Notes under the pieces: generated by a model
What the model saw: only the letters and a program-made list of their open reading frames with translations
What the model was told of the DNA's origin: nothing
The model's database searches: none
Origin: Catajapyx aquilonaris
Lineage: Eukaryota
Direction: 5' to 3'
Assembly (NCBI GenBank): GCA_000934665.2
Contig: KZ539075.1
Coordinates: 1-34,141, forward strand
Length of the DNA: 34,141 nucleotides
Part shown: positions 10,301-34,090 of the stretch, piece by piece
How the letters are laid out: each line of letters starts with the position of its first letter
How positions within the stretch are numbered: the first letter of the stretch is position 1
Made by a program: the position numbers and the translations under genes

Positions 10301-11269
10301 GCATGCATACGACTTTCTCCCTTACTAGTTTTGGGCATAGGGTGTTTCTCCTTGGGACAGTAGAGATATGATTGTGCATAAACGGTGGTGAAATCTGAGT
10401 CACGTCATACTTTTCTTCAGCACAGTTGATACCATAAAATAATAACCTATAGTTAATTGGGAATGAATATTAAGTATTTTTCTACGTTACATTCCGCATG
10501 TAACTTATCTAACACTGAACAGGGGGAGAGTATTTAAGGCGGCGCAGTAGCAAAAATACGGTAGGCGCATTTCGTAGGGAACTTTATTTTTTTGTCGCAA
10601 AACTCGTCGTTAATCTGAGAAAACATGAAATAGGTGCTTTCGCAAAGGTTTGGCCTTTACAATGGGATACCATATTCGACATGATTGCATTGAAACTGTG
10701 GACGTAGGGGCACAGAAGCGTGACCTATTTTCACACGATTCCGTCGGCCATGTTAATCAAATGGACTTTTTGGAGACGCCATATTCCGCGAACTTCAACT
10801 GACTTGCTGTAAAGGTCACTTATTGAAAATTGAAAAAAGACAAACTACTGCAGGTGCCCTGCACCTGATCATGTACTATTTTTTGGTGCAATTATTTCTG
10901 TGTCGATTGAACCATTTTTTTGCGGCCGTATGGCTACAGATATTTGCAGACATGTCGAATCCCCATATGATGCCTATGCAAGCACGTTTGTTTGGGTCGT
11001 CGGCTCTGCATTGTTACCGTATTTTTGGTACTGCGCCCCCTTAATACGAGGACACCTGTTAAGTTTGTTGCGTTACAATTTTTAACTACTGTATTTTGTA
11101 ATTTCAGGCCAAACAAACGCATTTATTACATGCATAGAATCACTGACTCCTCTAGTAACAGGCCCTCTCTACACCGAGATATACGCCTCAACTCTGGAAT
11201 ACTTCCCAGGAGCATTTTTCCTGCTGTCGGTCGGAGTACTTTTTGTCCCTTATGTTCTGCTTTTGTAAG

Positions 11270-11331
<62 letters not shown>

Positions 11332-11332
11332 G

Positions 11333-11400
<68 letters not shown>

Positions 11401-14400
11401 TCTTCATTGTTACCATTAAGAATTACTGTAGGCTAAAGTCACAAAATCAAAACATCGTCCCAGAGTTCACAGTCATACACGCTACTCTTGAAGTAAGACT
11501 ATGAGTAACTAAAAGCTACTGTGTGTTATGTAGAAACAATGAAAATCGCAATAATTAGCCGAACAGTGAAACTACATCCTACTTTTAGATGAAGATTATT
11601 TTTGAATTTCGTTTTACAAGTTTGAAAGTCTTGCCAGTTACGTATATAAGTATATGAGGCATTCCACGTCAAGAGAGACACTTTCCGACAAATCTTTGAG
11701 GACCTTGACCAAAATTTAGTGACATACATGTACTATTCATCGACCTGTGCAGGAGTCCAAATTATTATACCTCTGGGTTACGTGGTTGCATAACTACAGG
11801 GTGTCAAATGTGCCAGTTTTTGGACATTTTTGCTACGTTCGCTATGACTTAGATGGCCATATCTCCTAGAAGGTCAGGTCAAATGTAACATTTGATATGT
11901 GCATTGGAAGCGTAGTTGTACGCTCTATGAGATGGTCATATTCAACATTGAAGAATCCAAAAATTTAAAATCAAATTTGGCGCCCAAAACATTGATTTTG
12001 ATATTGGTCATGAATTGACCCCTACGATTTCTTTTGAATGGCACTAAAAATGACAAGGGAAATGTTTACTTCATTTTTCATTTTGAGTATGCCCCAGGAG
12101 ATGGTCATACTCAAAATGAAAAAATCCAAAAACTCTAAATAAAAAATGACGGCCAATTTTTGATTTTGATTTTGATCAGTAATCGACCCCTACGATTTCC
12201 TTTGAATGGCACTTAAAATGATCAGGGTAATGTTTACTTGAGATTTCCGCGAAATCTGGAGAACCCTTATTTGATAATTGCCAAGGGCCGAATTCAGAGA
12301 GGTTGCTTAACGTAAACGCGCCCGATTAAATCCTTTAGTCATCCTCGATTAGCAAAGGACCTGTTCAAGTAGCCCCGCTACCTAAACGGCAACCATCTTG
12401 CGCATCTTGTAGTGTATAATCTATGCACCTAGTTTTACGCTAAAGGCCGCTGTGTTCGCCACTGACTGTATCTTTGATGTGGTAGGGGTTGCTACCTAGC
12501 GGCCTTGGTAGGATTCAAAGCATGTTGTCACGTTGTGAACTGTTTTATTAGTTGATTTAGAGGCAGGAAAACTCGTGTGGTTTTTACCCCGTAAAAATGT
12601 TGTAAGAATATTCGTGTGAGACAAATGCCGCCTCAGGGAACCATATGCGAAATGCAAGCCCCATCGAGATATCACGCGTTTGCCCAATCGCGTATCTCTC
12701 CCTCTCTCCCTCTCCTCTCTCTCTCTCTCCCCCCTAAAAGAGAGACAGGAGCGAGGGGCGGACTCAGGATGGCGTTCGTTGGCAAAGCAAGGGCGAACTC
12801 TTTCTCCAAACTGATGAAGGTCACCCTTTAGAAGAATTCTTCCATTGAATGACTTATATTAGAGTGGCTGGACAGCAACATTTTGATCCAACTCCCCTGC
12901 GTTGCCAAGTTTCAGTGATCTGCTCCAATCTAATGACACGAATCATTGAGCCATGTGGGTGGCCTTTCTTTGCCAGGATAACCTTGAACAGGTCCTTTAA
13001 CCAACCTGCTAATACAAAGACGGCGATTAACGCTAAACGCCCCCTAATCGCACTTGCTAGCACTTTTAAATTTGCCAATCGAGGATAACTAAAGGATTTA
13101 ATCGGGCGCGTTTACGTTAAGCAACCTCTCTGAATTCGGCCCCAAATATAAAAACATTTTAGTTGCGAGACGCGTACCGTAAATGTAGTCACCTCAATCA
13201 TCAATAAAATTACTCAAATTTGTTGCGTTAAAAATTCATGCTACACATCGCGAGAATCATTATGTCTGGGCAGCCTCATTACTGAGATACACTCTTTAGC
13301 GATTTTTGCCTAATCCCTCCTGACTTTTAAATAGAATTTTCTGGTGTAACTAGCCAAAGAGGCCTTACCACATGTGGGCAACAAACCAACAAAGTCCCGC
13401 CCCCAGACCTTCCAGAGCCTTCTGACTGGGGGAGGGTTCGATGGGTGGCCTAACCGACAGGATATTTTGTACTAATTACATGTTTGCGGCCAATTATCTC
13501 AGTAATGCGGCGGCCAAACATAATGACTCCTATACTTAAATCGATCCTCTGGTGGATAGGAAGGCAGTCATATACGTCGGGTCACTGAGTTCAGATACAC
13601 CCTGTATAAAAAGTACTGTATATAAGTTATAACTACAGAGTCATCATCTATTGCTTACATGTAGACTTATCTGTAGTTATCCTTATCATCAGTCTGGTAT
13701 AATACGGCTTACAATCAGCTTGGGGAAATGAATCGGTGATTTTGAAAAGGGCAAGATTCCACTAATCCTTTTTTTTCAGGACACAAGAAAAATTGAATGT
13801 TATTTAAATGGTGCTCTCTATCCAAAATGTGATATAGCAGTTTTATTGTGAAAGTCACAGTGCATTACACCACATTCACCTGTTACCCACCCATCGCTTC
13901 ACATTGTTGCAATATGGAATTCAAAGTGTTGGAATAATGCCCTTTTCAAAATCACTGTACAATGCATATGTAAAGGAGTTGTATTGTGTACATATTATTT
14001 GGTTTCCGCCTGGGAGTTACCTTTCGCCTGCGTCAGGAGGGTCTCTGACCTGCACCAAGGAGGTGTCTGGCAACCTAACCTCCTGGGGAACAGCACATGA
14101 CCCATAGCTACGACATTGCACCTTGCACCCATGTTCCCTCCCAAAAAAATCCCAATCCTTACCCAATGTCCTTGTCTCCCTGCACCCGAGTGAAGTTAAC
14201 TTAGAAAATTGAGGGAAACTGGTGGTGTACCACCCCCCTATAGAACCCGTAAGGGTCATCACGGCTTCACGGGGTACAATCAAAAATAAAAAATAAAAAT
14301 AAAATTAGATTTGAAACGTACTCGTACAAACATGAGATGATCACAGTGTTACCAGTCCTCTTTTTCAGAGTCACTTTCTTTCTCATCAGTCTGCCAAGTC

Positions 14401-15831: not shown

Positions 15832-15864
15832 CACAAACTAGGGTGTATTGATCAGTGTTTGGTT

Positions 15865-16545
15865 TACACCTGTCTCAAAGTCAACTGACCGTCCGTAGAC
15901 AAGGCTCTTCCTCCCTCCATCTTATGCGAGTACTTCTTCTCAAAGAACTTGACATAACTGGAATGTCAAGACAATCACAACCATTTTTTTGCTCTAATGG
16001 TGTATAGTTTATGTAAAATGAAAATAAAGAAAGTCGGCCGGATTGATCCCATCCTGCAGGATCCTCACTTTGAAAATTTGGCTTGCATAGTTTCCTGCTG
16101 CTATACTATAGTGAATTTTGATTGTCTCTTCTAGAATTTGCCCCCTCGTTCATGATTAGCAGGGAGACACTACCCTCTCGCCATTTTCGTATGAGTTGGG
16201 GTTCTACAACGTCTACATTCGTCGCGTTCGAGGGGTGGTTCTCTGCTCTTTCTTTGCTGACCCTCATTCTTCTTTTGTTTTTGACTCCAGGTCCTTCATT
16301 TCCTCTGAGCCCACTTCTTCCTCTGGCTTTGTCCAGGAGTCTTCATTTGTGTCTAACAAACGATCTTCCTCATTTGGGATTAAGCTATATATGAGGCTCT
16401 ACCATAATATTGCTCTGGCTACAAACTCTTGGACAGTTTTTAGGCAAGCCACAGTGAGGAGCAAAATTCGTGTTTCCCCCGAAGGTGCAACCCGGAGCAA
16501 CAGGGAAATTGTTTTTGGATTATTATCGGTAGGTCAATAGGCCAT
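15865..16545 (-). pseudogene. Copy A of an unidentified gene family (degenerate)
   Basis: 16542-16264 translates AY*PTDNNPKTISLL..SGET.ILLL.VACL..VQ...IPNEE...EDS.T..EEEVGSEE...KTKEE*, collinear with copy B. Two in-frame stops. Nucleotide similarity to 23790-24930 continues down to ~15870. Confidence 0.6.
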
Positions 16546-17108
16546 CGACAAATCCACTGGTGTTGTCACTTGCCTTCGCTCACTATGCCACCATAGTCAC
16601 AGACTCACGGTCCAAACTCCTACTATACGCCTACTATTGTTCCGCAGCACACAACTCTTCAAGCAGCAGAAAACGCTGAACAAGGTGGGGTTGTGCCAAT
16701 TCAATAGTTAGCAAAACAAAATGCAAATTTGGCATAATCAGACAAACAGTACGTATGAGGAACACTGGATCTGCGAGACCGGAAACTGACTCAGTCAGTC
16801 ATATGTGATGCTACCCATAGAGGGCGAGGGAAGAGTCATGAAAAGGTACCAGACGCTCTTTTCAAAGTAATTCCGAATTTCTGCAGTCACATGCTTTTTT
16901 ATCGGATGACTTTGCAAGCAGATTTCACATTATTTCACAACATATAATACTCCTCCTATTAGGCCTATATGTGAATCGAAAAATGTGGTTGTAAAACTGC
17001 AGTCAGACTTGCTCGGAGCCCGCTAAGAGCCATGGCCGGACAGTATGTGAATGTAAAAGGAAATGGGAGAGGCGCAACCGGGGAGAGGGAGGGCGGAAGG
17101 GAGAGTCG

Positions 17109-17290
17109 TGATTGATGGATGTCAGGCCTCAATTAGAGACGAATGGAGCGTGTCCATCGGCCCTAAGCGCCAATTAATGAGCGCAATTAACACCCTTTGT
17201 AGGCACTTGGGCCTAATGAGCCGTAAATCCCCCTTTTCCCTCTCCCTAATTCCCACCATATTCATCTGGCGCTCCCTTAACGCTTGCCTC
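17109..17290. promoter_or_regulatory. Enhancer-like cluster of homeodomain sites with a Pbx/Exd-Hox-Hth-like composite
   Basis: TGATTGAT and TGATGGAT (17109-17120) abut TGTCA. At least five TAAT/ATTA cores follow within ~110 bp in GC-rich non-repetitive sequence. Motif evidence only. Confidence 0.4.
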
Positions 17291-17410
17291 AATGAATGAA
17301 GTTGTCCATACAGCCAGCCTCTCAACACTGCACCGTATTTCTCCCCCTCCCCTCCTTCCCTGCCTCTTTAAGACCTTAACCGTAACCCATAAGCGAATTG
17401 GTAGTATGTA

Positions 17411-17554
17411 CTATGGGGCTCAAATAAATTGTTTTTGCCACTTTATCCTAGTCTTGAAGCAACCCTTCGCACAGGCCCTACGGTGAGGCACGGTGTGTGT
17501 GAAGGGTTGCTGCAAGACCAGGGTAAAGTGGCCAAAACAATTTGAGCCCCATAG
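17411..17554. mobile_element. Palindromic MITE (~144 bp, ~60-bp arms)
   Basis: TA|CTATGGGGCTCAAA...TTTGAGCCCCATAG|TA. A half copy lies at ~20295-20343. Confidence 0.8.
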
Positions 17555-18983
17555 TATGTTGGTCTGGAAGGCTCCAGGCCTCTACCTGCAGCGAAGACGA
17601 ACGGAGGAAGTCTGGAGGAGGTGGGAGGGATGGAAGAAGGAAGAAGATAAAAAGAAGGCAGGCAGGCAGACAAAGGGATTGCAAGCGAGAAAATAGACTG
17701 CTGGCCCCTTCCGTTTTTCCAAAAAGCCGACTACTTTTGATGCGGCCAGTCCATTTGAGCAGGCTGCTTGCCTTGCCTCCTTGCACAGCCCCATTAACTT
17801 TCCAAAAGATGGAATGTGTGCTTGCTTGCTTTGGCTGGACCCATCTCACATCTATCGTGATGGCGCCTGCAGGCACAAAATCCCTCCCCGCCTTCCCCCA
17901 CAATTCTCCCCCGCCCGCCAGCCACGACGCGGCGTCCCTCCCTTCCATCCAGCAGCCTGATAACTAAATCCGTCTCCCTGGGTCCCTCCCTCCCTCCCTC
18001 TCTCCCTCTCCGAAAAGGGGTGGGTGGCGAACAAAGGCCTGCTTTCAGCTCCATTCGCTCTGTGGTGCTGGAAACAAAGTCCGGACCACCATTACTCAGA
18101 GCCAAAGCCTTCTCCCGTTTCCACACTATAAATCTGAAGCAGCGGCGCCAACCACCACCCTGCGCACATCCATATACACTTACTTACTTTCAACCGCCCC
18201 CTCGCCCGCCTCTATCCCAAAAAAGGAGCCAGGGGGTGGGGGCAGCTAGGGAATAAAGAGAGAAAAAGAGAGAGAGAAAAAGGAAAGGTCGGGATAAAGA
18301 GAAGGCGCCCGTCCGTCCGGAAATGAGGACCGAAAGGCCAAGCTCTCCCAGCCCAGGACTTACTTTTCTTCTTTCTTTTCTTTTATTCTGCCACTTTTCT
18401 CTTTCATGTCCTTTACTCCTTATAAACAACCCCCATTTCGACCCTTTCCAGTCTCGGTAGAGAAGACTTTTTTTAAGCCTTGCTGGATGCTTGCAGGAGA
18501 AAACTTTGCACGGGAAACCATGGAGAAGTATAAGTATAAGAAGGGGGGAAAAAGCCGCTAATACAATAGCATAGGCCGATAAGTGCGGTCAAATCAAAGT
18601 CAAAAGTAAGAAAACTTGTTAAGGTTATTTCTTAGGGGTTCCATGCTTCCATCTTCTTTATTCGAAAGTATGAACAGAGGAAACACAATAACGAAGTGCC
18701 TTAAGCCGATTCCTCTTCCTCTATTTTATCCCTTCAGTTTTCATGTTTATTTGTTTAATATGATAGGAAATGATTTATTAATCGCGACTATTCGTGCTTT
18801 TAGCACTGGAACTAATCATCAATTGTGTTAAAACGAAACTGCCTCTAGCTTTCGTGGTTGGAAAAAGTAGCGCCATAACGCAAGGTATACATACAGTATC
18901 ATATAATATGTTACCGGTACTCTTTACACAGTGTTTCTATTATAACTCAACTCAATAAAGCAAATTATAATAAAAGGCAAAGC

Positions 18984-19011
18984 TTGTTTGTTTGTTTGTT
19001 TGTTTGTTTGT
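18984..19011. repeat. (TTTG)n microsatellite
   Basis: Direct reading. Confidence 0.9.
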
Positions 19012-19035
19012 CCCCTTTTATAACAATTTCATATC

Positions 19036-19545
19036 AATTTCGTACCAATATATAGTTGGGTAAAGGCCAAAGTTTGTACACATCCAGGTTTGGTTACGAT
19101 GGCAAGCGGTTACTATGGTACCAACAACGATGGATTGTTGTTGATTACATTACAGTAGGCCTACAAGGTTTGGGTCTTCCTTTTCCTGTTTGCATGCCGC
19201 TTGTCATGTATTTCCAAAGGTACACTCTCCCATCCCCACTTTTCAGATCGTCAAGTTGGACAGAAGAACATCCTGTATCATATTGTTCTAGAAATAAACC
19301 GACTGGACCATTCAATGGACGTCTCAATGTAAGGACTGTACTAGTAGTATCCTGGACTACATCTAGTTACGTCCTGTGCACAGGACCTAACTAGATGTAG
19401 TCCAAATGCAACTATTCTGTACAGAACCTGACAGATGTAGATCCACATCATAAACTGTTGTGTTTGCTGAGGAAATACTGGAAACTCTAATACACTGTAT
19501 CACCCATCAAGGAACAGACAGCAGAGATAGTGTATTTTTAAAGTA
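19036..19545 (-). pseudogene. Possible degenerate three-exon relic of a secreted PI-PLC X-domain-like gene
   Basis: Phase-consistent GT-AG exons (..-19428, 19335-19165, 19112-..) give ..SANTTVYDVDLHLS/VLTLRRPLNGPVGLFLEQY...GRPKP/LTACHRNQTWM, then after a frameshift TLAFTQLYIGT. This resembles, from memory, the insect PLCXD pattern VGLF...C...PTWM...L..L.IPGTHD. Confidence 0.3.
19353..19404. repeat. 52-bp spacerless palindrome
   Basis: TGGACTACATCTAGTTACGTCCTGTG|CACAGGACCTAACTAGATGTAGTCCA, one mismatch. Confidence 0.92.
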
Positions 19546-20345
19546 TACAGTACCGTATATTTGGTACAATACCGGTATATTGGGGATTTTGAAAGGGCAC
19601 CTAAAGTACAAGTTCTGGATGTGGAGTGAGTAACATTAAGCAAGTTGCATATCGGCGCCCGATGACATTATACAACAAGCACAGGGGCCCACAAGATATT
19701 TCTCCTCAAAGAAAACATGAAGATTATAGTTAAGGTGTCAAAGGCGTTAGGTTTTGACGAGAATATACGCTCTTACAGTAAGTGTTTTTCTTCCGTGTAT
19801 CTGATGTGCCTTGAAAAATCGGACCCAAAAGCAAATTGCAATTCATGAATAATTCAATCCGAATCGAGCGAGACACCCCTAAATCTTCTGGACTGCACAT
19901 TTTGAAGCACATCATTAATCACCCACGATTGGCCTTGAGCCTCTACTTTACGAACTTTAGACTACACTTAAGAGTGTAGGTCTCTCCATCGCATCTGAAT
20001 CCCGGACGTGCAGTTTTCCAATATACGAGTAAGTTGACTGAACAGGGCTGAACGTGTGCCACCTATGCACCGTCTGGAAGAAATACACCAATCAGGACCA
20101 CATTCATGTATTCCTCGCCCTCTATCTTGATCTTCCTTCCTACAAGGTTCCGATTGTTACATTTTTAAATGATGCAATTAAACCATTATGTTTCCTTCCC
20201 TTCCCCGGTCCGACATCAATGGTGTAATATAGGCTACAGAAGGCTAACATAAGGTCAACCCTGCAAAAAAGCTCAGGGAGAAGGCACAGAAGCGTACTAT
20301 GGGGCTCAAATAGTTTTGGCCACTTTATCCTGGTCTTGAAGCATA

Positions 20346-20650
20346 CTGGGACAAGATAACTCATTCGTTTTGGGAGGTGGCTTGTGACCTTGGCAACCAT
20401 CATTAAGCCCCACCCCCTACCGGTCCACCAATCAGGATTCAATTTCAACGTAGATTGGCGTTATGTTCTAAAACCTCAAGAATGATATGAGTTTGTTTAC
20501 ATTAACGCAATTGGTAACCAAGCAGGGGGGAAATATTTCCCCACCAATCGTTCTAAATTCCATACAAAAAACTCATCTGGGGGCGGGGCTAATTATGGTT
20601 GCCAAGGTCACAAGCCACCTCCCAAAACGAATGAGTTATCTTGTCCCTAG
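20346..20650. mobile_element. MITE (~305 bp, ~70-bp TIRs), TA-flanked
   Basis: GGGACAAGATAACTCATTCGTTTTGGGAGGTGGCTTGTGACCTTGGCAACCAT and its perfect reverse complement at ~20595-20647. Abuts a half copy of the 17411 MITE. Confidence 0.85.
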
Positions 20651-22666
20651 TATACATATCGGAATAAAACTTAAATTTCGCAATTGACAGATTTCCGCTG
20701 AATTCAGAGACCACTACAGGCATTATAGAACATTACCTTGTTTCTAGAACATTTCAATGCTTCCATATTTTATACAGTAAATTTTTTACTTGATTTTTAC
20801 TTTCCCTTGACTTGATATTTACTCGATTGAAATTTTTTTATCTGATTCTTTGGTTTTCTTGTGGAAAAGATATTGAATGACAGAAAACGGAAAAACATGT
20901 AGGCCTATACTGTAGATGACTGTGGAAGAAACATTCTCTGACTTGACTCATACCAATCTGTAATCTGCTTTAGTTGGCGACTATTTGTTTCGAGGAGACA
21001 GTATAAAGAGGAAGAGGCAAATGAGGCGTGACTCTGGCGCACTCGGCATCATTTCCCGGCAAACAAGCCCAGCTTTCGCTCTTTCTCTTTCTCTCTGTCT
21101 CATGCCGTGCTCAAAAGTGCTGCCGGAAGTGGCGCAAAGTGCCCCAGCCCATTTTCACACCGTCTCACAGGAAATCTCTTATACGGACACTTCTTCAAAA
21201 CCACAATCTCTCACCGTTTTATTTGTTCCGGAAGATTATTCATTTCATATTGCTTCTTTCAAACACCAACATTCGTCATTGTCACGTGACTGAAAAATAG
21301 GATGAGCCGAAAATACCATTTAAGCAGAGAAACGGCAGGGAAGTTTATAATGGCCCATTAAACAAACGTATATTGTGCAAAGTAGCGTTACAACGTAATG
21401 TTCTCGTACAAAAGAAAGCATACACATTGTTTACAATGAGCAGAGAATACTCTGAAGAATGACAATGACAATGAAAATAGTCAATATAAAAAGATAATAA
21501 TATATCACAATATATTTTTAAATACCGGGATGTCAAGGTGTAGGAAACCCGGATAGCATGGGTATAGGATAAGGAACACAGGAAAGGCTGGGCGTAGCCA
21601 GTACACATCAGTTCAAGAAAGGACGTCCAAAGCCTTCTATCCAAGAAAGATTGTCCCAGAACACGTTGCAGGTATGGCTAAGGGCAGAAATTCAAGCAAC
21701 AATCAATCTGTGAGCATGGACATTAACATTCATCCAAATAAACAACACAAAACACTCCAACATTGTCCATAAAAACAAGGCAACGTAAATGTTACGCAAA
21801 AGCTCGAGCACAAAGAGTAATGAAACAATAATGCCGTTAAGTGAACCAATGGAGCACCACAAGTTCAAAAAAGCATTCAAACACGCGTCAATAATGAAGT
21901 GCATTAGTGAAAACAACACACAGGACAGCGAGAGATGACATTCCTCTGCAAAATCAAGACGGAGAGTTACAACGACTCTCGCAGCCATTTATTAGAACTA
22001 TACCAAAATGAGGAGTAAACCACTATACATCCAACTTGCAACCACACAACTCGTGATCGTAGGGCACAGATTACGAGACTGAATACGGAATCAAGGGAAA
22101 ACATTTCCCCGGAGAGGTTGCCAGACACAACCGACTCCATGCACAGTCAGAAGTCGACTGTCTTTGAAGGACAGGAAGAAGCTTCCCAGCAAAAAATGAT
22201 AGTCAAACGGGCAACAAAAGCAAATGAAATAGTTCAGAACGTGGATAAAAAATGCACCAAAAAGGAAATCCAAAGGTTGACATGCGACAGCCATGGCAAT
22301 GTTTAGTGTTCTATCTTATTCTGCTTATTATTTAGAGACCAGTGTCTGTGGAGAGCAGGGGTGAGGATGGGTCTAAAAGAAAGCAGGGACTCGATGATTA
22401 AGAAATGACAAGCCTATCTACATGAATGAGTTCAATTAATTTTTATAAGTAACGCAATGAAATGCTGCTCACTAGGATTCAGATTTTAATGGCATATACA
22501 GTACTCTACACAGCACAACACAACACCGCAGGGTGTTGCAAAGGTTTACACTACCTCTGGGATCGAGGTTCTTTGCGAATTTGTGAAACAGAATTACCTC
22601 TGTTGCTTATGGCAATTTCGTCACCATCACGAGATTATTTGCTGTTATGTTTAGATTCGCCCTATA

Positions 22667-22992
22667 AGGGAGGCGGAGTGGTGCTGCGGTAACGCCCACG
22701 GATGTTAAGGTCCCGGGTTCGATCCCAGCCCGGGGTTCCCCCCCTTCATCTCGTGCAGAGTTGGGCCATCTCTGGCTTCGTCTCGGGTGGAAATTTCCGC
22801 TAGACTAATCCACCCGGGGGAGTTCACAAAATGACCAATATACGACATTGCTCTTGCACTCTGCACATCCCCTCCTACTTACCCTTGGAACAATTAACAT
22901 ATATACATTATATGGTTCCAAAAATAGTTGTATTCCACTCCCCTAAAAAAGGCCCAAGGCCTGAGAATGGGGTACTGTAAAAAAAAATATAT
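22667..22992 (+). mobile_element. tRNA-derived SINE, third head/body type
   Basis: TGGTGCTGCGG A-box-like and GGTTCGATCCC B box. Shared 3' tail (GACATTGC..TGCAC, TATTCCACTCCCCTAA..GGCCCA..GGGGTA + A run). TSD ATTCGCCCT(A/G)TA at 22655-22666 and 22993-23004. Confidence 0.85.
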
Positions 22993-24653
22993 ATTCGCCC
23001 TGTACAGTATTGTATGGTGGTAATAGGGGTCATCCTGCGAGCCTGGCAACCTCCCAAAACATTCGAGCAGCATGGGTGTCCTGACACACAGGAACACTCA
23101 TATTACAGTACCAGCGTATATGGAGAATCTAAACCTTACGTATATGCGATTATCTTCGTAATGAAGTAGAAATCTCCAAAATCAATTCGATATACAATAG
23201 TCCCTAACCGGGAGGCTCATGCTACACAGCAGTGGTCAACCCTTTTTCTTTACTAATAGTTGATTCAAATGGTGGTAGGTGCGTAGGTCTGGAGGAATTG
23301 GTGGGGCCAGTTGCTTGGTATGGGGTAGCCTCGCGGGTAGCGGAAAGACATTGGAACGAAATATCACTATGATTCACATACCGTCTGCTCCTGTGGTGGC
23401 GTGAATGCTGCTGTACTATATATTATATTAATACCTTAATATTTTAATATCATTAGTCATTGCAAGTTACATTTCTGCACGAAACCTTACAGCGCCTTAC
23501 AGTAACAGATAATATTATAATGAATGACACATAAATACTGTAGTAAGTATCTCAAATAACGTAAGTCATGCTTCGTCTCACAGTCAGCAACCTCAGCTAG
23601 AATCAATATCAGCAGCTCTTGATATCAGTAAAAAATGATGACGGCTTCAGCTGTTTCTTGCTTTTTGATTGATTCTGACCACATTAAAAGGTCATCTTAC
23701 TTAGAGACTTCTCTCAAAATATACGGTACACTTCTCGGCCCTACCTCCCACCTCCCCTTCACCTTTTCCCCCATCACACCCATCCCACTTATCTCAAAGT
23801 CACTGACCTTCCCGTAGACAAGGTTCTTGCTCCCTCCATCTTAATATTACTACTGTAGTATACTTCTTCTCAAAGCACTTGACAAAATAATGGGGCCCTG
23901 TAGCCTTGGTCTGGGATTTGGGAAATTTGTACACGAATAGCTCCATACAGTACATGTAAAGAAGCATTCCACCACTTCTCAGCACAGAAAAAAAGGCATT
24001 CCTCGATAAATTATCGATGGTTTAAAAGTCACTCTCAAATTGGCGGGGAAAGGGGGGGGGGGNGGGGGGGGGGGCATGGCCTAACGGGCGCGTTTCCACT
24101 CATGACATCCCCTTCCTGGGGGCGTAAGCGAGGCAGGTCCGCCCCGGGGCGACCTGTAGAAGGCAGTCAAGTACCGGCACCGAGTCCTGAGAACGAACGA
24201 AGTAGTTCGGATGACAGGTGGAGAACTAAACCAGGAAGCGTACAGTACCTGTCTCATTTTTGTAATCTCTCTGGCCTGGCTGACGTCACCGCAACAACAA
24301 CGGGCCACAATGGATAATAAAATCGATTATATATATCTCGAAAACTAATACACATGCATGTACTTCTTCAAACAAAAAAAACCCAGTACTGTGCAACACT
24401 CATATCTTTTATTCCAGATGTGCATTATTGTAAAATAAACACTGTCGGCTGGATTTATCCCGTCCTAGTGTAGGATCCTCGCTTTCACAGCTTCCTGATA
24501 ATCATTATGACTAGTCAATTTTTATTTTTACTTCAGAATTTTGCGTAGCAGGGACACATTATTTACGCTCTCTGCCTTCGTATGAGATGTAGCTCGACGA
24601 CATCTAATGTTTATTCGTCCGCCTCGCTGGGTTTTCTCCTTTCTCTGCTGGCC

Positions 24654-25009
24654 CTAGTTTTCGTTTGTCTTTGGCTGGAAGGGTTTCGTCTCATCTGAGC
24701 CTACTTCTTCCTCAAACTCTGTCCCGGAGTCTTCAGCACTTGTGCCAGAGAAGAAACTTTCTTCAGCTGGGATTACTTGCTCAGGTTGTACCATCTTGGG
24801 TATGCCCAAAAGCCCCTGGACGATATTGAGGCAAGCTATAACGAGCATGAGCAAAGCTGTTTCACCCGAACGCACAGCACTCTGTAATAAAGAAATCGTT
24901 TCTGGGTAGTTATCGATAGGTCTGTAGGACTATTGTATTACTATATCACTGTGTTACTCCACAGGGGGTGGTCCGTACTTACCATGTTGAGAGTAATAGG
25001 AGGAGTCAT
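24654..25009 (-). CDS. Copy B of the unidentified gene family: two exons (25009-24983, 24929-24654), 100-aa open frame with one hydrophobic segment and an acidic tail; may be a truncated pseudogene
   Basis: AAAAC ATG context, 9-codon exon ending ATG|GTAAGT, 53-bp intron, aatag acceptor. Protein MTPPITLNM-SYRPIDNYPETISLLQSAVRSGETALLMLVIACLNIVQGLLGIPK...EDSGTEFEEEVGSDETKPFQPKTNEN*. Same exon-1 length and splice sites in copy C. Synonymous-biased differences vs copy A. Confidence 0.5.
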
Positions 25010-25244
25010 GTTTTCGCACTTGTCAGACCGACTTTTGATTGTTTCTTTGTGTCTTTGTTTAAAGAAATCATTTGCCAGGCAACTGCACGGTGGTAAATGG
25101 AAATCATATATATGCTATAATACTCCATTATTACAGATAGTTAAATATAATGCCTGGTTGACCAGCTGAAAGAGTGTGCACTTTTCGGTACTTGTACCAT
25201 CATTTTTGAAATGCCGCATCACTTTTGATACTGATTTTTCAATA

Positions 25245-27063
25245 TCGCCTCTATATATTGACAGGCAATAAGGATGCTTGTGTTAGACAATTCCCCATAA
25301 TAAACGCCTTGTCTGGAACGATTGACGTCACTCTGACGTAATGGCCCGTCCACAGTGCTGCCACCTAATTCTTCCCCGGGTGAGTGCTATCACCTTCTCA
25401 TCACGGCACCAATTCATCTGGCCACCTTCTTCCCTTCCCGCCAAAAGTCCTAACTGCCACCTATTTCCTTTCCCGCCAATACAGGCCCCGGGTGAGTGCT
25501 GCCACCTTCATCTCATCACGGCACTAAATCATCAGGCCGGGGGTAGGGGGCGGTGCGGCGGGTTGTGGGTGGGGTGGGGTGGGTCAGTGGCTCACTTCTC
25601 ACTGCGCAGTGGAGAGTATGGTCGCTTTATTTCTGTCGGTGGTCAGTACCTTACGTCCTCACGACCTGCTCAGTGCCTCATATCCTCACAACCCGCACAA
25701 TGGACGAGGAGGAGGATCCCATTACTAGAAAGCGTCGGATGGCTAAGGCACGCAGGGCTAGATGGCTAGCAAAGCAAAGTCAGGAGTCCCTGGACAGAAT
25801 TCGTCAGGCAGACGCTGCAGCTCATCGCTTAGCACGCCATCCTCTAACCCAATCCATTCCCGACGAGGCTATTCATTTTCTGGAGGCCCGAGTAGTTCCA
25901 CACTTCTGCGGACCGATTAATGTCATTTGCCACTTCTGTAAGTCCCGCAACTTTCTTACCGAACTTCCTTCTGATGGTAAATTCACAACTTGCTGCCGCA
26001 AAGGAAAACTCAAGGGAAAACTCCGATTAGAGACACCTCGAGATGCTCACGGGAATCTCTTGCCTTATCCTCTTTTCCTGCTTGACGTGATGTCCAATCC
26101 TGACAATCCTGATTATAGGAACTTCCGTGACATCATTCGCTCATACAATAGTGCTATGTCGTTTGCGTCCATGGGAGCCAAAGTGGTTGATTTCAGTGGT
26201 GCCGGACCTTACGTCTTCAAAGTCCATGGTCAAATTTTCCACCGCACGAGTCACGTTCAACCATCGATTATTGACAAACTCCCTTCACAGTCTGTTGTCT
26301 ATTACAGTTCCGATTCAGTCGTTTCCGAGGATCCACACGACGTCCTCAATTTTCCACCAGAGTTTTTGCATGAACTCACTCCCTCAGGCATGCCGCCGCA
26401 TAAGTTGTTGCTGAAACAAGGAGTGGTGGTGATGTTGCTAAGAAATCTCGATCCCAAACAAGGCCTCTGCAACGGCAGTCGCCTATTGGTCACTGGGCTC
26501 CATGCTAATTTCATTGCTGCCGAAGTAGTGTCGGAATGCAATCGCGGTCATGTCGTTTTCTTGCCCCGAATTACCTTAGCTCCCAGTGACATCAATATGC
26601 CTTTTGTTCTCAAACGTCGCCAGTTTCCTATCATTCCAGCTTATGCCATGACGATCAACAAGTCGCAGGGCCAGACTTTTGAGCACGTGGGCATTTACCT
26701 GGATGAACCTGTCTTCTCACATGGCCAGCTGTATGTGGCACTGTCCCGGTCTCGCAACCCAAGTCAGGTCAAAGTATTCACTACTCCTACTGCTCAACAA
26801 GGAACATTGCTCTCCAACAACAGAGTCTTTACACAGAATGTTGTATATCGCGAGGTTTTATGAAAAAGACTTCTCATGTCCGACTCAAGAAGTATAGCCT
26901 ACAGTATGTCCACTGATTCAATGCCACTAAATTTTTCAGCCCCGTCTTACGACCACATATACGCTATTTCTTAGTTGTCACTCCGAGAGGCCTCTCATCC
27001 CATTTTTTCATTCCCATTGTCCTCATTGCAGGTTTTGCCAAATTTTGGCTACGGGTCCGCTAG
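25245..27063 (+). mobile_element. Internally deleted Helitron (~1.8 kb)
   Basis: 5' A|TCGCCTCTATATATTG (5' end uncertain between 25245 and 25250). 3' hairpin GCCAA-ATT-TTGGC (27037-27049), then CTAG|T at 27060-27064. No TSD. Absent from the paralogous arm near 33410. Confidence 0.88.
25700..26863 (+). CDS. Helitron RepHel deletion derivative: N-terminal Zn-binding region fused in frame to the C-terminal Pif1 helicase region (387 aa)
   Basis: CHFCKSRNF..E...CCRKGK, FRDIIRSYNSAMSFASMG and GPYVFKVHGQIFHR are followed directly by PSGMPPHKL.LK.G..VMLLRNLD...GLCNGSRL, RRQFP...YAMTINKSQGQT and VFSHGQLYVALSR. No HUH/Y2 Rep motifs and no Walker A. First ATG at 25700; the track's 25553 start is GTG. 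Confidence 0.9.
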   Translation: MDEEEDPITRKRRMAKARRARWLAKQSQESLDRIRQADAAAHRLARHPLTQSIPDEAIHFLEARVVPHFCGPINVICHFCKSRNFLTELPSDGKFTTCCRKGKLKGKLRLETPRDAHGNLLPYPLFLLDVMSNPDNPDYRNFRDIIRSYNSAMSFASMGAKVVDFSGAGPYVFKVHGQIFHRTSHVQPSIIDKLPSQSVVYYSSDSVVSEDPHDVLNFPPEFLHELTPSGMPPHKLLLKQGVVVMLLRNLDPKQGLCNGSRLLVTGLHANFIAAEVVSECNRGHVVFLPRITLAPSDINMPFVLKRRQFPIIPAYAMTINKSQGQTFEHVGIYLDEPVFSHGQLYVALSRSRNPSQVKVFTTPTAQQGTLLSNNRVFTQNVVYREVL

Positions 27064-27076
27064 TAAGATAGATTCA

Positions 27077-27488
27077 CCGAAGCAGTAGTGGCGGAGGGGA
27101 TTTGGTATCCGACTGCTAATCGGGAGGTCCTGGGTTCGAGTCCCGGAGGCCGGCGGTCCTGACCTTGGTTTTCTGTGGTTTTCCAAGGTCTCCCCAGGAA
27201 TAATTTCCGGGATCGTACCGTAAAATAGGCCACAGCCGCTTCCTTCCTCTCCCTGTCCTGGAGGAGGTGCGGGTTAGTCGGGGGTTTCTAACTCGCATCT
27301 AGGGGGTCATCTTGGCGAACGGGCCCCCTGAGGGACTGCACACGACCCCCAACTTGATGACATTGCACATGCACCAGTGTCCCCTCCTATCCCCACCCTG
27401 TCCCTGGGACAGAGTGGTATTCCACTCCCCTAAGAGAGCCCATGGCTCTAGCACGGGGTATATCTAAAAAAAATAATAATAATAAAAA
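27077..27488 (+). mobile_element. tRNA-derived SINE with an Lm1/Talua-like central domain and the shared 3' tail
   Basis: TGGCGGAGGGG A-box-like and GGTTCGAGTCCC B box. GGTTTTCTGTGGTTTTCC...CCGGGATCGTACC.TAAAATAGGCCACAGCCGCTTCCTTCC resembles the orthopteran/termite SINE domain. Perfect 13-bp TSD TAAGATAGATTCA at 27064-27076 and 27489-27501. Confidence 0.9.
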
Positions 27489-27602
27489 TAAGATAGATTC
27501 ATGAGTGAATGCAAATTATGTGAGTTCTGTAATATGGCTACTTACCGCCTCGCATCCCTTTCCACTGCTACCTAAATTCCGTAGAAAATTCATATATATA
27601 TA

Positions 27603-27740
27603 CAGGGTGAGTCATAATTCGGCAGACAAACAATGGGTGAACTCTCACAGTCAGAGACACCTCCACATAAAGTGATCCACTGGTGCTCATACAGGAGTCG
27701 ACTCTATAGAAGTGTGTCGGTAGAATGAGGAAAGACCCTG
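27603..27740. mobile_element. Old Tc1/mariner-type MITE, duplicated in inverted form at 32742-32895
   Basis: TA|CAGGGTG...ACCCTG|TA. CATAATTCGGCAGACAAAC and CAGAGACACCTCCA are shared with the reverse complement of 32742-32895. Confidence 0.7.
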
Positions 27741-27761
27741 TAAGTTATATGCATGAATATA

Positions 27762-27951
27762 CAGTGTACTCCGGATATAACAGACTGCAAGGGACCGCGG
27801 AAATGAGTATGTTATAACCGAGGTCTGATATTATATGCAAATATACAGGCCATAATTATATGGAAGTATGGCGGGACCAACCTCTCGAGTCTGCTATAAG
27901 CGGTAGTCTGTTATAGCCGATGCTGTTATAATTATCAGGAGTCAATTATTG
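27762..27951. mobile_element. pogo/Tigger-like MITE
   Basis: TA|CAGTGTACTCCGGATATAAC, internal GGGACC and GTTATA(A/G)CCG repeats, degenerate right end. Absent from the paralogous arm. Confidence 0.6.
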
Positions 27952-28781
27952 TATATAAAATGCAAATATGCAGTGCTATGTGCAGTACAGTATTAGGATA
28001 ATCAAATATAAGAACAAAATATTTTGACCATGACAACATTAACGTTGTGCTTCAAACAAATATCACTTATGATGAAAGTGCACGAAGCAGAAGAGCAATC
28101 ATCAGAATCGCACAAGCGAGATAATAGAAAGATCATAAAGATTGATGGGCCTTTGAAAAATCCGATATCTTCCTGTCACCTGGGCGGCACTTATATAGAC
28201 TACTGATCACTTATTTTCTTCGGAGTATGCTCTCGTGCGTGTCACCACGACAGTTCCAATGACAAAAAAGCTGCACGTGAGCCATACCAATACTTGCAAA
28301 CTTTTGCTAAAATCCTTATTTCTCAGGAACTAGGTATAACCTAAATGAAGATACTTTTAACGAACAGTGGCGTAATTCATTTTACTGCGTTTTACAAGAC
28401 CTTTCCTTCCAGTGTGTAACAGCTAGACATTTAAAAAAATACCTGCAGACGTCTTTTTTACATAAGCACTATATTATCCTAAGCACTTTCCTTTTTCCTC
28501 TGCCAAAGTTATGATTCCATATTTGGATGCGGCTTTCCTATCAGTGTGCTATCAGTTTATACTTTCCCAGCAAAAAATAGTTATCCTGATACATAGGCTG
28601 CGGTATGGCATGAGTTGCGGGTTGCTATGGTGAGTTAGGATAAATGTAATGTTGCATAATTATCCTACATATGACATAATAACGTGGAACATATTTTTCT
28701 TATGTTTAAGAAGGCCATTATTATCTTGTTCTATTATTTTAAGCTAGCAATTAATTCACACTCCGTGTTTTTACTCATAAA

Positions 28782-29037
28782 CGCATCCCGGCAATAACAG
28801 GGGCACAAGTCCAACAATGACGATTTTGACTTACTACTAGAGCAGGGTCCATGACCGTGTGCACATTCAGAATGCATATTCTGATTTTTAGAAATTAATA
28901 ATTAATAATTCTGATTATTCGAATGCTGCATCAATACCTGATTTATGATAACACTATACCAACACTTTACAGCTTTCAAAGTGCTCTCCTGTGAAATTGA
29001 CTTTTTGGACTTGAGCTCCTGTTATTGCCGGGGTGCG
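28782..29037. mobile_element. MITE (256 bp, ~33-bp TIRs)
   Basis: CGCA(T/C)CCCGGCAATAACAGG(G/A)GC(A/T)CAAGTCCAA at both ends, inverted. TSD degenerate. Confidence 0.8.
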
Positions 29038-31874
29038 ATATGTAGATCGACATGCTACAAAATGTTCCCTGGTGGGATTTGAATATTGTCATGCTTATGG
29101 CACTCTCCCTGATCTACGGTGTAAAACTGTTCGCTAATTTTTACTGCCGATTGCCATACTGTGAAGTCACCTTATAGCTTACACTCCTTACAGGATGGTG
29201 AAAACGATCCATTTTTCACCCAAACATTACGGTCCTTTAGAAGGTCTCAGGAGAAATTGCTTTCTACGTAATTTTTGCCATTTCGGATCAATAACAGAAC
29301 TGTCGTTTGTCACTCTTGAGGATGGTAAGACTTATCCTGTCGGGCATGCCGTTCCCAATTACCTGCACTGGGTTTCTGAGTGGTCTACCATGCATGAATT
29401 TTCCTATCATTCACATTGGAAGCAATACCAATAAAATTACATACGATTATTATCAACAAAACATAACCGAAATTGTCACATTCAACTTTTTTTATTATTG
29501 AGAGAGTCGGTGCAAGAAGATCGTATCCCAACCGATATTGTGCAATTAAAACACTCCTGATGGCATCTGTCAATTCGTGAGAGTATGTAGATTAGAGAGG
29601 CTATATTCCTAGTTTTCTACTACAAAAAAACAAACAGGGGCATTTTAAAAATTCTTCAGTGTGGTGCCAAATGCTAGTCTTTCAATGAGATAAAACACTA
29701 CATCCTGAAGCGACCATTTGACACAAGCTGTGGAAAAATTAGAAAGAAAACTCAAAATATTAGCGAAAATATACTGCAGAAAGAATATTGCAGCCGCAAA
29801 ATTGTAACTGCCTTTTCCAAAAATTGGGGAGAGTTGAGACACGTTGTCCTTACACCAACCCTCTCAGTTTTGAGATACCTAATAGTAAATCCGAGCGGAA
29901 ACGCAACCTTTCCTCCATCATGTTATAATTATCCAGGAGGTCTAATTCCATTGACTATTTTAAAAATAAACAAATATACGCATCGAAATTGCCTAAGAAT
30001 AATAATACCAGGCCCAATTAGACTGCTGGTCAAGATTTGAAGAAGACTGTGTGAAAAATAGATTGCTTTTTAAAGAAATATATGGTGCTGAGGTCACCGC
30101 AAGAAGGGGATAGTTTTGTGCGAGAAATGGGACAGGGCGGGAGAACCATGGGGGGAAACGGGGGGAAAGGTGGGGGAAGGGCCTCGGTTTGCTGAAAGGC
30201 GCGCGGTCAGCTGGCCACAAATCTCCAGTTGAATGGAGCTAGGCGAAGGGGGTTTAATGGGCCGAGGCCTATCTATCAATTAGGTAGGGAGAGGAACACT
30301 AATTCCTTCTCTCTACTGCTGCCCTCTACCGTTCCGCCCTTTTCTTTCATTCGGCCTGCTCCTCTCGTCCCCCTCCATCCCTTTTGCAGGGATGTTGCAG
30401 CATGCCGGGATGATGATGCTGGGAGGAATGGGGGGAATCGATGATGGCCTGCTCTCCCGCTTCATCACTGGGCTTTTATGAGTCGGAGACACCCCCCCCC
30501 CCCACCCCCCNNNNNNNNNNNNNNNNNNCCCCCCCCCCACCCCCCCATCATCCAGCATCAGACTGAGGGAGCCACGGACCAAGCAACCAAGCAAGCCCTG
30601 GACCCCATTTGTTGGGCCGTGACGTAATTGCCCTTCTCTTGGCGGCCAAATTGCTTCTCATCGCCTCGATTATCCCCTTAATGGAAGCCGCACATTACTA
30701 CTCTCGCTTCCGGATTTCTTTCTCCGGATCGGCTCTAGGGGACCAGCGACGGAGCTTAGTGGGGGAGGGAGAGGAGGGGGGAGGAAGAAAGGAGAGGGAG
30801 GGAGGAGAAGAGGAGGAGGGGGGGGGGGGGCAGATGNGGGGGCAGATGCCGACATTGGCCCTAATGGCAGGCTAACCTCGATCAAATGGGCCCCTGCGAT
30901 TTTGATGCTTCGTATATTTTGTAAGCCGTCAGCCTGTTCGCATTCAGCCAATTTGGGCCTGAGATATAGGCCTATATACTTAGTTAAGTTGTGGTTTGTT
31001 GTCGCAACAAATAAAACTAACATCAATGTCGCATTGTATGATTGGGTGTGTTGTAGTATTTGTTTGCTGCTGTTTGATATGCATTTAACAATTTGTANCC
31101 CCCCCCCCCCATATCTCTATATAGGTTCGTCCCTGATCAAATTCACGCACACGACAAGGGTCTTACTCATGAGCTTACAGGAATACATAACAGTTGATTA
31201 CTAAAACTGAAAATGAGCATATTTTTACAATTTTCATCCGATTCAAAGATATAAAATGAAGTTATATTTGACTGATTTTGAAAAAGGAGGGTTTCAAGTT
31301 CGCAGATTGCACTGCCACTAAGCCACTTATGGATGGATTTTTCAAATATACCGCCGGTATTCTTAGGGGACAATAATTTTTCTATCAGAAAACTGACTTG
31401 ACCATCAGAAAGTTATCCTTCGATTAGTTCGATAACTACAGCGGGTCCTGAGTACCGCGCATTTAGCCAACCGCTGATATTTATTTTTAAACATTCCAAT
31501 AACTTTGCCGCGTGCTGAACACTACAGTATACAGTAGGCTGTAACGGCTACTACTTAAATACCATTTACATCGAGTTATGTCTTCTAAGGTAGCGATCTA
31601 GAGATAAGTATACACTGTACAGTACGTAGTTAACAGTTGCTCCTTCGTCTCATTTCTCATCCCTACATTTTTTGACTTATTTTGTAATAATTATTTCTTC
31701 CCAATGACGAAGATAACGCGCTTAAGGAGCCCTTCCACGATTAATTTTGCTGTGTACCACGATGATTTTAATGAACGTTGTTCCTAAAAGCATCTCCAAA
31801 TGTAAGTTTGTATCCTTTGGAGTAAAATGTAAATATTTCGCAAAAAAAAATCAACTTAATCACAGCATACAAAC

Positions 31875-32310
31875 ATCATGTATACTGTATAGATCGAAGC
31901 ATTTCCTCAGCCGTCGTGTCATATTTTGTAAGCTTACGAGGAGAGTTTAAGAAAGTTATCTACGTAATTATGAAGATATTCTCGCCTGTATATAATTATA
32001 TAGGATCATTTTGTAAGGGACAAAAAAATGTGTGGTCACTCGGTTCAAGGTCTGGATAATGGTCTGGCATGCTGCGATAATGTTCAGAGACGACCCGCTT
32101 CATTATCGGAGAAAACATGTCGACATTGTCTGACTGCAAATGGCAGTTCATACGCTGGCATTGCGCAAAATTTGGAAGACTGAAAGACAGTACTTTACGG
32201 ATGACTCCCAATGGATGATTTTGCTAGCCCAGAAAGCTAAGCGAGAAGTTGTTCTCGCGAGCTTGCAAACCCACCTTTACAGCTGGAGTCATAGACATTA
32301 TCAGTGTAGG
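31875..32310 (-). pseudogene. Highly decayed mariner transposase relic
   Basis: Minus-strand fragments in the expected order: FWASKIIHWE (cf. VFWD..GIIHWE), HLQSDN (cf. LLHDNARPH), HYPDLEPSDHTFFCPLQN (cf. YSPDLAPSDYHLF..LQN), LQNMTRRLRKCFDL (cf. IQKL..RW.KCID). Confidence 0.72.
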
Positions 32311-32495
32311 CATTCTGTGTAATAAATAATAAATAATTGAGATAAACCGCACTTTTCTTATGTCCTTATACGCCCAATTATACGTACTAACTTACATAAA
32401 ATAATGTAGGCTACTGTTGTGCACAAGTCATAGGACTCATAGCACTGCATGTTTGCATTTTATATATGACGTACATAGGCCTACAGTATATATTT

Positions 32496-32711
32496 CAGTG
32501 GTTTCCAACATTTTACCTACTGCGACCCCCTAAACATGTTTTCATAAATATGCGACCCCACCCCCTTCCTCCCCTCCCCCGGCCCCTTCTACAACTGCCC
32601 CCCTTCCAGAAAACATACACTCTGTACGGCCGCAAAAATGGTTCAATTGACACAGAAATTGCAAAAAAAAAAGTTGAACAAGGCCCGTGACCCCCCGGTT
32701 GGAAACCACCG
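32496..32711. mobile_element. hAT (Charlie/Buster-like) MITE
   Basis: TIR C(A/G)GTGGTTTCCAAC with subterminal GCGACCCC motifs. 8-bp TSD only partly conserved (ATATATTT vs ATATAGGC). Confidence 0.72.
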
Positions 32712-32899
32712 ATATAGGCTATTTGGTGCATTAAAAAACTACATGGGTTTTCATAATAAACATCGACAAACTGCTAGACTCTATCTAGAGTGAACTCCTG
32801 GAGATCAGTGGATGACTTTATCTGGAGGTGTCTCTGCTCCGAAGAGTTCACCCTAGAATCCTAGATGTTTGTCTGCCGAATTATGAACCACTTTGTATA

Positions 32900-33299
32900 C
32901 AGCGTGGTTATGAATTCGTCTGCCAAAATTATATGGGTAGTAGGGGATGGATATGGAAGAAGCATGATATGGGTCCGAAAGGTCGGCGATGACTTTGACG
33001 GCGACGATGTCTATCCTGACAAGTAGCCTGTGACATGCCTGCATTGCTGGTTGCTGGAGTCAGGGCGGTTGAGCAACGGTCTGGGCGGGTCTGGGAGTGC
33101 GAGCCCCTGACTCCGGCAACCAGCGATGCAGGCATGTAAGGAGGTATCCATACTTGCAAGGATGGACATAGTCGATGTCAAAGGTCGACATATCCAAAAC
33201 GGATTGTCGCAGGCCTTTCGGACCCATGCCATGCCTCTGCCATACTCACCCACTACGAGCATCCGGATCATTTTGGCAGACGAATTCGCGAACACGCTG
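32900..33299. mobile_element. 400-bp foldback MITE, TA-flanked
   Basis: CAGCGTG..GAATTCGTCTGCCAAAAT TIRs plus inner inverted blocks (ATGGGTCCGAAAGG/CCTTTCGGACCCAT; CATGCCTGCAT.GCTGGTTGC.GGAGTCAGGG and its complement). The element is an imperfect palindrome along its whole length. Confidence 0.85.
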
Positions 33300-33671
33300 T
33301 AAATGAATTTGCTAAGTTATGGAACTTAGATAGCAGTGGAAAGGGATGCGAGGCCATAACCATATCACGTAAAAGTCACATAATATGCATTCACTCATGA
33401 ATCTGGCTTATCCTTGTTAGTCCGGGGCCTAAGCGAAAAAATCAGGCCTAACTCTGCACTTTGTGATCAGAAGGTCCCACTTGGGACATAAATTATGTTC
33501 CCTATGCCTATAGGAGCCATTTGAGAGTTGACGCCACCTGATCGGCCCCTTAGGTCACGAGTAATACGGAGTTGCCAACCTGGTCCGGGATGATGCAAGT
33601 ACAGACAAGTGCACACTTTGTCAGCTAGTCAACCAGTCGTTATATGTAACTACCTGTAATATTGAGTATTG

Positions 33672-33814
33672 GGGCCCGTTTACATGTGAGCGATTCGCTC
33701 AGCGATGAATCCAATATATTGTTAGGGAACAAGGCATTTTCGTTCCAAACAATACTGGTTTCATCGCTCAGGGATGACCATCGCTGAGCGAATCGCTCAC
33801 ATGTAAACACGTCT
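33672..33814. mobile_element. Harbinger-like MITE (~143 bp)
   Basis: Perfect 30-bp inverted core GTTTACATGTGAGCGATTCGCTCAGCGATG (33678-33707 and 33779-33808). Absent from the paralogous site near 25118. Confidence 0.8.
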
Positions 33815-33921
33815 TATAAAATAGCCTACGCTTTCTATTTCCCACCCTGCATGCTGCAGTTGCCTGACAAATGATTTCTTTAACAAAGAACCAATCAAAC
33901 AAAAGTGACACGGTCTAAAAC

Positions 33922-34027
33922 ATGACAGCTCCTCTCATCTTCGCTTTCGTAAGTATAAGGACCATCCCCCGTGTAGTAACACCGTGATATATATGTCAGT
34001 ATAATATAATAGCCTTATAGACCTATC

Positions 34028-34067
<40 letters not shown>

Positions 34068-34090
34068 CGACATTTCCCTATGAGGGGTAG
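33922..34090 (+). pseudogene. Copy C of the unidentified gene family (exons 33922-33948 and 34013-34090)
   Basis: AAAAC ATG, 9 codons MTAPLIFAF|GTAAGT, 64-bp intron, aatag acceptor, then PYRPI + (AAC)13. A 1-nt deletion relative to copies A/B leads to TAG at 34088-34090. Confidence 0.55.
34027..34066. repeat. (CAA)n/(AAC)13 microsatellite
   Basis: Direct reading. Confidence 0.95.

Follow-up and report, generated by a model that had tools for sequence, protein, structure and literature searches.

Does the short two-exon open reading frame (ORF) on the minus strand of contig KZ539075.1 of Catajapyx aquilonaris (assembly GCA_000934665.2, positions 1 to 34,141) belong to a working gene, or is it an accident within duplicated DNA? 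The frame lies in a 34,141-nucleotide stretch, referred to here as the window, for which an initial annotation made from the letters alone had proposed a three-copy, locally duplicating family of spliced genes. Comparison of the window with itself (blastn) finds three homologous stretches within 18 kb: A (15867-16541, minus strand), B (23786-25201, minus strand) and C (33589-34036, plus strand). These are paralogous and local, and their likeness is well beyond chance. That part of the proposal stands; the remainder does not, since A and C are not intact genes. ‘Three-copy spliced gene family’ is an overstatement, because the full two-exon open frame is complete in B only, A and C being decayed or truncated. 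We tentatively read B as a taxon-restricted gene, or as one that was such a gene until recently, whose small product would cross the membrane once and carry an acidic tail; A and C would be its pseudogenes. Our confidence in this reading falls somewhat short of even.

Three homologous stretches and their anatomy

A and B match over 16021-16541 and 24432-24928 respectively (65% over 540 nt, E 1e-19), while B and C match over 24906-25087 and 34036-33855 (71.5%, E 1e-19). Each pair has a second blastn match further out, and the exon-2 product of B is recognisable in A by tblastn (Table 1). Neither tblastn nor nhmmer searches with two nucleotide profiles returned any copy in the window beyond these three. 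Taken together, the A-B-C homology includes the promoter, the intron and approximately 0.9 kb of 3’ flank, and the copies therefore reflect DNA-level duplication rather than retroposition. Within these 18 kb, a DNA segment of about 1 kb would have undergone three or more rounds of local duplication, with copies in both orientations.

Several simpler histories were considered and set aside. A is not a processed retro-pseudogene: it lacks a junction of exon 1 with exon 2 (identity upstream is 42%), homology continues for some 0.9 kb beyond the AATAAA of B, and there is no A-run or poly-A end at 15867. A and C might also be the halves of a single copy that an inversion of 16542-34036 had separated. 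Such an arrangement is geometrically consistent, yet this history is unsupported, with unequal divergence from B (A 60-79% identical, C about 85% in non-coding DNA) and an overlap of ~23 nt between the supposed halves.

Table 1. Features of copies A, B and C and two further features of the window (window coordinates).
Feature	Position	Strand	Details and evidence
B, far-upstream block common to C	25119-25201	-	Matches C 33670-33589; blastn 84% over 83 nt; 70/82 = 85.4%
B, putative core promoter and 5’ untranslated region (5’UTR)	25010-25112	-	25010-25087 part 83.6% identical to C 33855-33921
B, exon 1, coding part	24983-25009	-	9 codons MTPPITLNM; AAAAC-ATG at 25009, then GTAAGTAC donor; 15/27 nt identical to C
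B, intron	24930-24982	-	53 nt, GTAAGT...GTAACAC...AATAG, with GTAACAC branch-like; 86.8% identical to C intron
B, exon 2, coding part	24654-24929	-	276 nt, 91 codons + TAG 24656-24654; hydrophobic segment ALLMLVIACLNIVQGLLGI and acidic tail
B, AATAAA (putative function)	24610-24615	-	38 nt past stop; no counterpart in A at the aligned position
B, 3’ flank homologous to A 16021-16263	24432-24653	-	133/220 = 60.5%; indels of 1, 2, 11 and 11 nt
B-specific segment	23888-24431	.	544 nt where A has 63 nt; contains high-copy repeat resembling a short interspersed nuclear element (SINE)
B, distal 3’ block common to A 15867-15957	23786-23887	-	blastn 78.6%; 72/91 = 79.1%; 11-nt indel
A, decayed exon-2 homologue	16264-16541	-	B’s frame; stop TGA 16266-16264; tblastn 44.6% identity, E 2.5e-16
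A, 3’ flank homologous to B 3’ flank	15867-16263	-	
C, upstream region homologous to B	33589-33921	+	Broken at 33671-33854 by ~184 nt absent from B
C, exon 1 homologue and intron	33922-34012	+	MTAPLIFAF 33922-33948; 64-nt intron 33949-34012
C, exon-2 start	34013-34090	+	8 codons PYRPINNN, then (AAC)13, unrelated sequence, TAG 34088-34090
Internally deleted Helitron-type Pif1 helicase frame (neighbour, outside the unit)	25547-26863	+	Pfam Pif1_2B_dom 5.9e-19, UvrD_C_2
Major-facilitator-superfamily (MFS) transporter exons	962-1363, 2611-3063, 5100-5441	+	Pfam MFS_1, 3e-10 for middle exon

B is the intact copy, retaining a start, splice signals and a stop at 25009-24654 on the minus strand, and the 100 open codons claimed for it are confirmed as 9 + 91. 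Read without splicing, the ATG frame meets a TAG inside the intron. Also borne out is the shared 5’ architecture of B and C: in each, AAAAC-ATG opens nine codons that end at a GTAAGTA donor, and a short intron, 53 nt in B and 64 nt in C, runs to an aatag acceptor followed by SYRPIDN in B and PYRPINN in C. Upstream of exon 1 there is a TATATAT at 25112-25106, which we take to be a TATA-like box, and 28 nt further on, at 25084, stands the A of a CAGT. B retains the putative parts of a compact RNA polymerase II gene: a TATA-like box, a CAGT start, a 5’UTR of ~75 nt, two coding exons of 27 and 276 nt parted by a 53-nt GTAAGT...AG intron, and AATAAA 38 nt past the stop. We infer that B may be transcribed, spliced and translated. 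The motifs TGACGTCA (25320-25342, upstream of B) and TGACGTAA (24270-24289, inside the B-specific insert) are presumably CRE-like (cAMP response element). The distal 3’ block is the best-kept A-B stretch; it was rejected as an extra exon, given its 11-nt indel and six-frame translations in which no frame is open in both copies.

A is a decayed copy and not a gene. Its alignment to B begins at the first exon-2 codon and extends ~0.9 kb into the 3’ flank, while the sequence upstream of 16541 is only 42% identical to the intron, exon 1 and 5’UTR of B, which amounts to no detectable homology. GG stands at the position of the B acceptor AG, and two in-frame stops interrupt B’s frame (TGA 16536-16534 and TAG 16401-16399). 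A otherwise keeps the frame of B over 90 aligned codons, with one 1-codon and one 2-codon gap in a codon-guided alignment; in the nucleotide alignment the ORF carries four indels of 1, 2, 3 and 4 nt, which net to a preserved frame, and the terminal TGA of A is the codon aligned with the TAG of B. The death of A would have involved loss of exon 1 and of the acceptor, together with the gain of two stops.

C is a 5’ fragment with at most a 34-codon frame, closing at TAG 34088-34090. It shares 24 nt of exon 2 with B (75% identical), and the 78 nt that follow the microsatellite are not alignable (35.7%). The extra ~184 nt in its upstream region contain a perfect 30-nt inverted repeat (33678-33707 and 33779-33808), in the manner of an insertion resembling a miniature inverted-repeat transposable element. 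C would have died by the loss of nearly all of exon 2 behind an expanding microsatellite, and would also have received this palindromic insertion in its promoter.

Coding potential of copy B

The predicted product of B would comprise 100 residues, with a short N-terminal part, one membrane-spanning helix at approximately residues 34-52, and a disordered, acidic, Ser/Thr-rich C-terminal tail. The single hydrophobic stretch and acidic tail described in the initial annotation are indeed present: the mean Kyte-Doolittle (KD) hydropathy reaches 2.36 over 19 residues, and the 48-residue tail holds 12 D/E and 3 K/R. As a control, KD 2.36 was reached by 5 of the 85 window frames. A single-sequence AlphaFold model of the exon-2 product (predicted local distance difference test score 65.6) places helices at 9-21 and 24-41, with a helix covering the hydrophobic segment and a low-confidence tail. 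In A this segment is interrupted by K, E and R and is not conserved. B may be compared with small integral membrane proteins that span the bilayer once and have acidic cytosolic tails of the casein-kinase-2 type, a class rather than a defined family. B is like them in its ~100 residues, its single hydrophobic 19-residue helix and its acidic, Ser/Thr-rich tail of predicted disorder, and unlike them in having no sequence or profile similarity to any member, its topology being a prediction. If it has a function, the tail may lie on the cytosolic side and act as a small membrane-anchored docking or sorting tail.

No family can be assigned to B, as the initial annotation had also concluded. Pfam returned no families for the B frame, a word-index search of 5.8 billion proteins gave no matches, the ESM Atlas held no usable match, and metagenome scans with the B protein and with a 28-letter conserved motif were likewise empty, as was Rfam across the window. 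The only match came from phmmer against 1.84 billion representatives. This protein, P0002, is a 526-residue frame of 53-residue tandem repeats on a 1.4-Mb contig, and its score is the sum of eight stretches of ~24-27 bits apiece; we rejected it as an artefact. The adjoining Helitron helicase frame served as a positive control for the 5.8-billion word-index search, where it found 5568 relatives at E<=1e-10 among 8000 candidates scored. Some of these are named Helitron helicase-like, and some came from spiders, a hairworm, a hagfish and others, showing that the library includes animal proteins.

Evidence that B codes for protein is modest, and comes from comparison with A. In the frame of B, the ratio of nonsynonymous to synonymous differences (dN/dS) between A and B is 0.434 (proportions of differing sites pS 0.536, pN 0.315), the lowest of the six frames, the others ranging from 0.49 to 1.31. 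Simulated neutral placement of the same substitutions at random gave 0.775±0.221, with 2.8% of 2000 simulations as low. Purifying selection on the B frame is suggested only marginally (p ~0.03). The lean of A-B differences towards synonymous sites, which had been noted by eye, is confirmed as an excess at third positions (32/25/43 of 90 per codon position, chi-square p=0.02).

It is nonetheless possible, if doubtful, that all three stretches are non-coding, low-copy segmental duplicates, whether of ordinary intergenic DNA or of a long-dead gene, arising within a transposon-rich region; the open frame and splice-like signals of B would then be fortuitous or relics, with no product made from them today. 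The low dN/dS and the third-position excess speak against this, as do the retention by A of frame and stop position at 66% nucleotide identity and, in B, the correct order and spacing of what appear to be promoter-like, Kozak-like, donor, branch, acceptor and AATAAA signals. Several observations nevertheless agree with it, and these weigh against B being a gene. Firstly, such frames are common in this DNA. The window holds 54 stop-to-stop frames of at least 90 codons, and a hydrophobic stretch of the transmembrane kind (above KD 1.6) occurs in 23 of 85 frames. A gene model with an upstream in-frame ATG, GTRAGT and AG can be built for 4 of the 84 window frames of at least 80 codons, which leaves 3 of the 83 frames other than B; under the stricter test of GTAAGT with a purine at -3, two of the 84 remain, namely B, for which this rarity counts in favour, and one chance model at 18407. 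Secondly, two of the three copies are plainly dead, and the two stops in A match neutral decay (3.4 expected, P(<=2) = 0.31). Thirdly, the coding letters are no better kept than their surroundings. Between A and B, identity in the ORF (66.5%) does not exceed that of the proximal 3’ flank (60.5%, p=0.19) and falls below that of the distal block (79.1%, p=0.025). Between B and C, coding identity is 33/51 (65%) versus 172/202 (85%) for the promoter, 5’UTR and intron (Fisher p=0.002); the non-coding blocks were picked as alignable, which brings some bias into this comparison. Read at face value, the B-C pattern is the opposite of what simple purifying selection would predict, and at 85% identity the ATG, GT and AG common to B and C carry little weight. 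Finally, B has no relative in the protein libraries searched, despite their animal content, and a protein language model recognised it at a score of 1822, below the 2300 reached by 91 of 100 known-family proteins.

The excess of coding change between B and C admits a further explanation. The two copies differ by 35% in coding sequence versus 15% in the promoter, 5’UTR and intron, a coding change some 2.4 times faster. In exon 1, 24983-25009 of B and 33922-33948 of C are 56% identical, compared with 84-87% for the adjoining intron and 5’UTR (Fisher p=0.0007). Diversifying selection, a conversion mosaic or chance could each account for the low identity of exon 1. B could also be a live young orphan gene for a membrane-anchored acidic-tail protein in a birth-and-death cluster, and the faster coding change would then mean diversifying selection or mosaic gene conversion acting on a tiny protein within a conserved regulatory shell; we consider this quite improbable. 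Taxonomically restricted, or orphan, genes with local birth-and-death duplication are known as a general concept. This locus resembles them in its short few-exon gene, its lack of any detectable homologue, its mostly pseudogenised local paralogues, and its fast-diverging coding sequence beside better-kept flanks. It differs in that the sign of constraint comes from the A-B pair only and is marginal, B being a candidate gene known from sequence.

Copy number and the repeat question

The initial annotation had named hundreds of dispersed copies with terminal inverted repeats (TIRs) or long terminal repeats (LTRs) as the mark of a transposon fragment. No TIR or LTR was found round B, inverted repeats in 23600-25400 being only 16-19 nt long at 74-88%, and at the 3’ ends the homology stops without a tail or poly-A. 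Pfam likewise found in the B frame no domain of a transposase, reverse transcriptase or helicase; those of the helicase belong to the separate frame at 25547-26863.

Five runs of contigs were available, four being DNA runs of one sample and one of unspecified kind; copy number was assessed by aligning the contigs of four of these runs on 23650-25250 at a likeness of at least 80%. Three of the four are DNA runs of that sample, and the fourth, X5, a 2022 run, is the one of unspecified kind. The gene part of B (24406-25250) is at baseline depth, unlike the nearby SINE-like insert. That element occupies ~23901-24058 in the 3’ flank of B, beside a C/G homopolymer run with N; contig depth rises to 1,900-16,800 in bins 23866-24081 versus a baseline of ~25-34, and many loose contig ends are stacked at 23901 and 24051-24058. 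Run X5 covers the SINE-like repeat only. The result for the gene part holds for close copies: at 80% likeness the test did not show the known copy C on B and is blind to old copies of this sort, so that an old family with members 60-80% alike would be missed. In addition, one extra contig present in all three DNA runs matches ~24608-24658 and 24881-24920, joining 24658 directly to 24881 and skipping 222 nt (74 codons) of exon 2, the middle being either deleted or diverged. There is therefore at least a fourth, partial look-alike elsewhere in the genome.

These observations bear on whether A, B and C are fragments of an old, unclassified interspersed repeat, either a non-autonomous transposon or a segment carried by a Helitron, whose copies are now 60-85% alike and whose ORF is a remnant of the element or of captured sequence. 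We regard this as unlikely. The fourth partial look-alike and the blindness of the depth test to old copies leave room for it, and the fragments do have different ends, A being without the 5’ part and C without the 3’ part. They also lie in both orientations among transposons, namely the Helitron-type helicase, a TIR-bounded element ending at 33419 and the SINE-like insert. Set against this are the missing terminal repeats and poly-A, the baseline depth of the gene part, the ORF free of transposon domains, and the want of any translated look-alike among 1.84 billion representatives, whereas the adjoining helicase finds 5568 of 8000 scored in the 5.8-billion word-index search.

Helitrons carry host gene fragments, and the capture of such a fragment would be in keeping with the internally deleted Pif1 helicase frame whose end lies ~350 nt from the upstream end of B, on the opposite strand. 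In this frame an N-terminal Cys-rich part is joined straight to the Pif1 2B and C-terminal helicase domains. Its best relatives are 70% identical over 47% of its length and belong to very different animals: a spider, a hairworm, a hagfish, a myxozoan and a cnidarian. Unlike a captured fragment, however, A and C have no adjoining helicase, the B-C homology ends at 25201, before the helicase frame, Helitron termini were not found, and the unit retains a promoter-like region and an intron of its own.

Genomic setting and significance

The window as a whole is eukaryotic, animal-like, repeat-rich DNA with large palindromes and TIR pairs. The MFS transporter at its left end (Table 1) is the sole ordinary host gene seen. 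A near-perfect palindrome of 1 kb at 8655-9671, 91% self-complementary and foldback-like, contains nested arms at 8686-8994 and 9337-9645 that match at 96%. Poly-Ile and poly-Asp open frames at 11263-11420, with spurious weak Pfam matches, stem from a compound (TAA)n(TGA)n microsatellite. Inverted terminal blocks of ~120 nt each (77-78%), at 27480-27706 and 32786-33419, enclose 5.9 kb with N gaps; the segment 27480-33419 is likely a TIR element, ending ~170 nt before the upstream homology of C. Two further pairs of dispersed repeats, 1-110 with 13514-13622 (93%) and 1857-2085 with 14006-14238 (79%), keep their order at a distance of ~12-13.5 kb, a hint of either an old duplication of larger extent or a single element present twice.

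The significance of the locus depends on whether B is expressed. Were it not, B would stand as a caution, in that chance alone yields, about once or twice in 34 kb of transposon-rich animal DNA, an open frame that has both neat splice signals and a hydrophobic stretch. With expression, B would represent a lineage-restricted small membrane protein that has escaped annotation, as such proteins are missed by gene predictors and homology searches alike, and the locus, one live copy beside two wrecks, would illustrate gene birth and death on a small scale.

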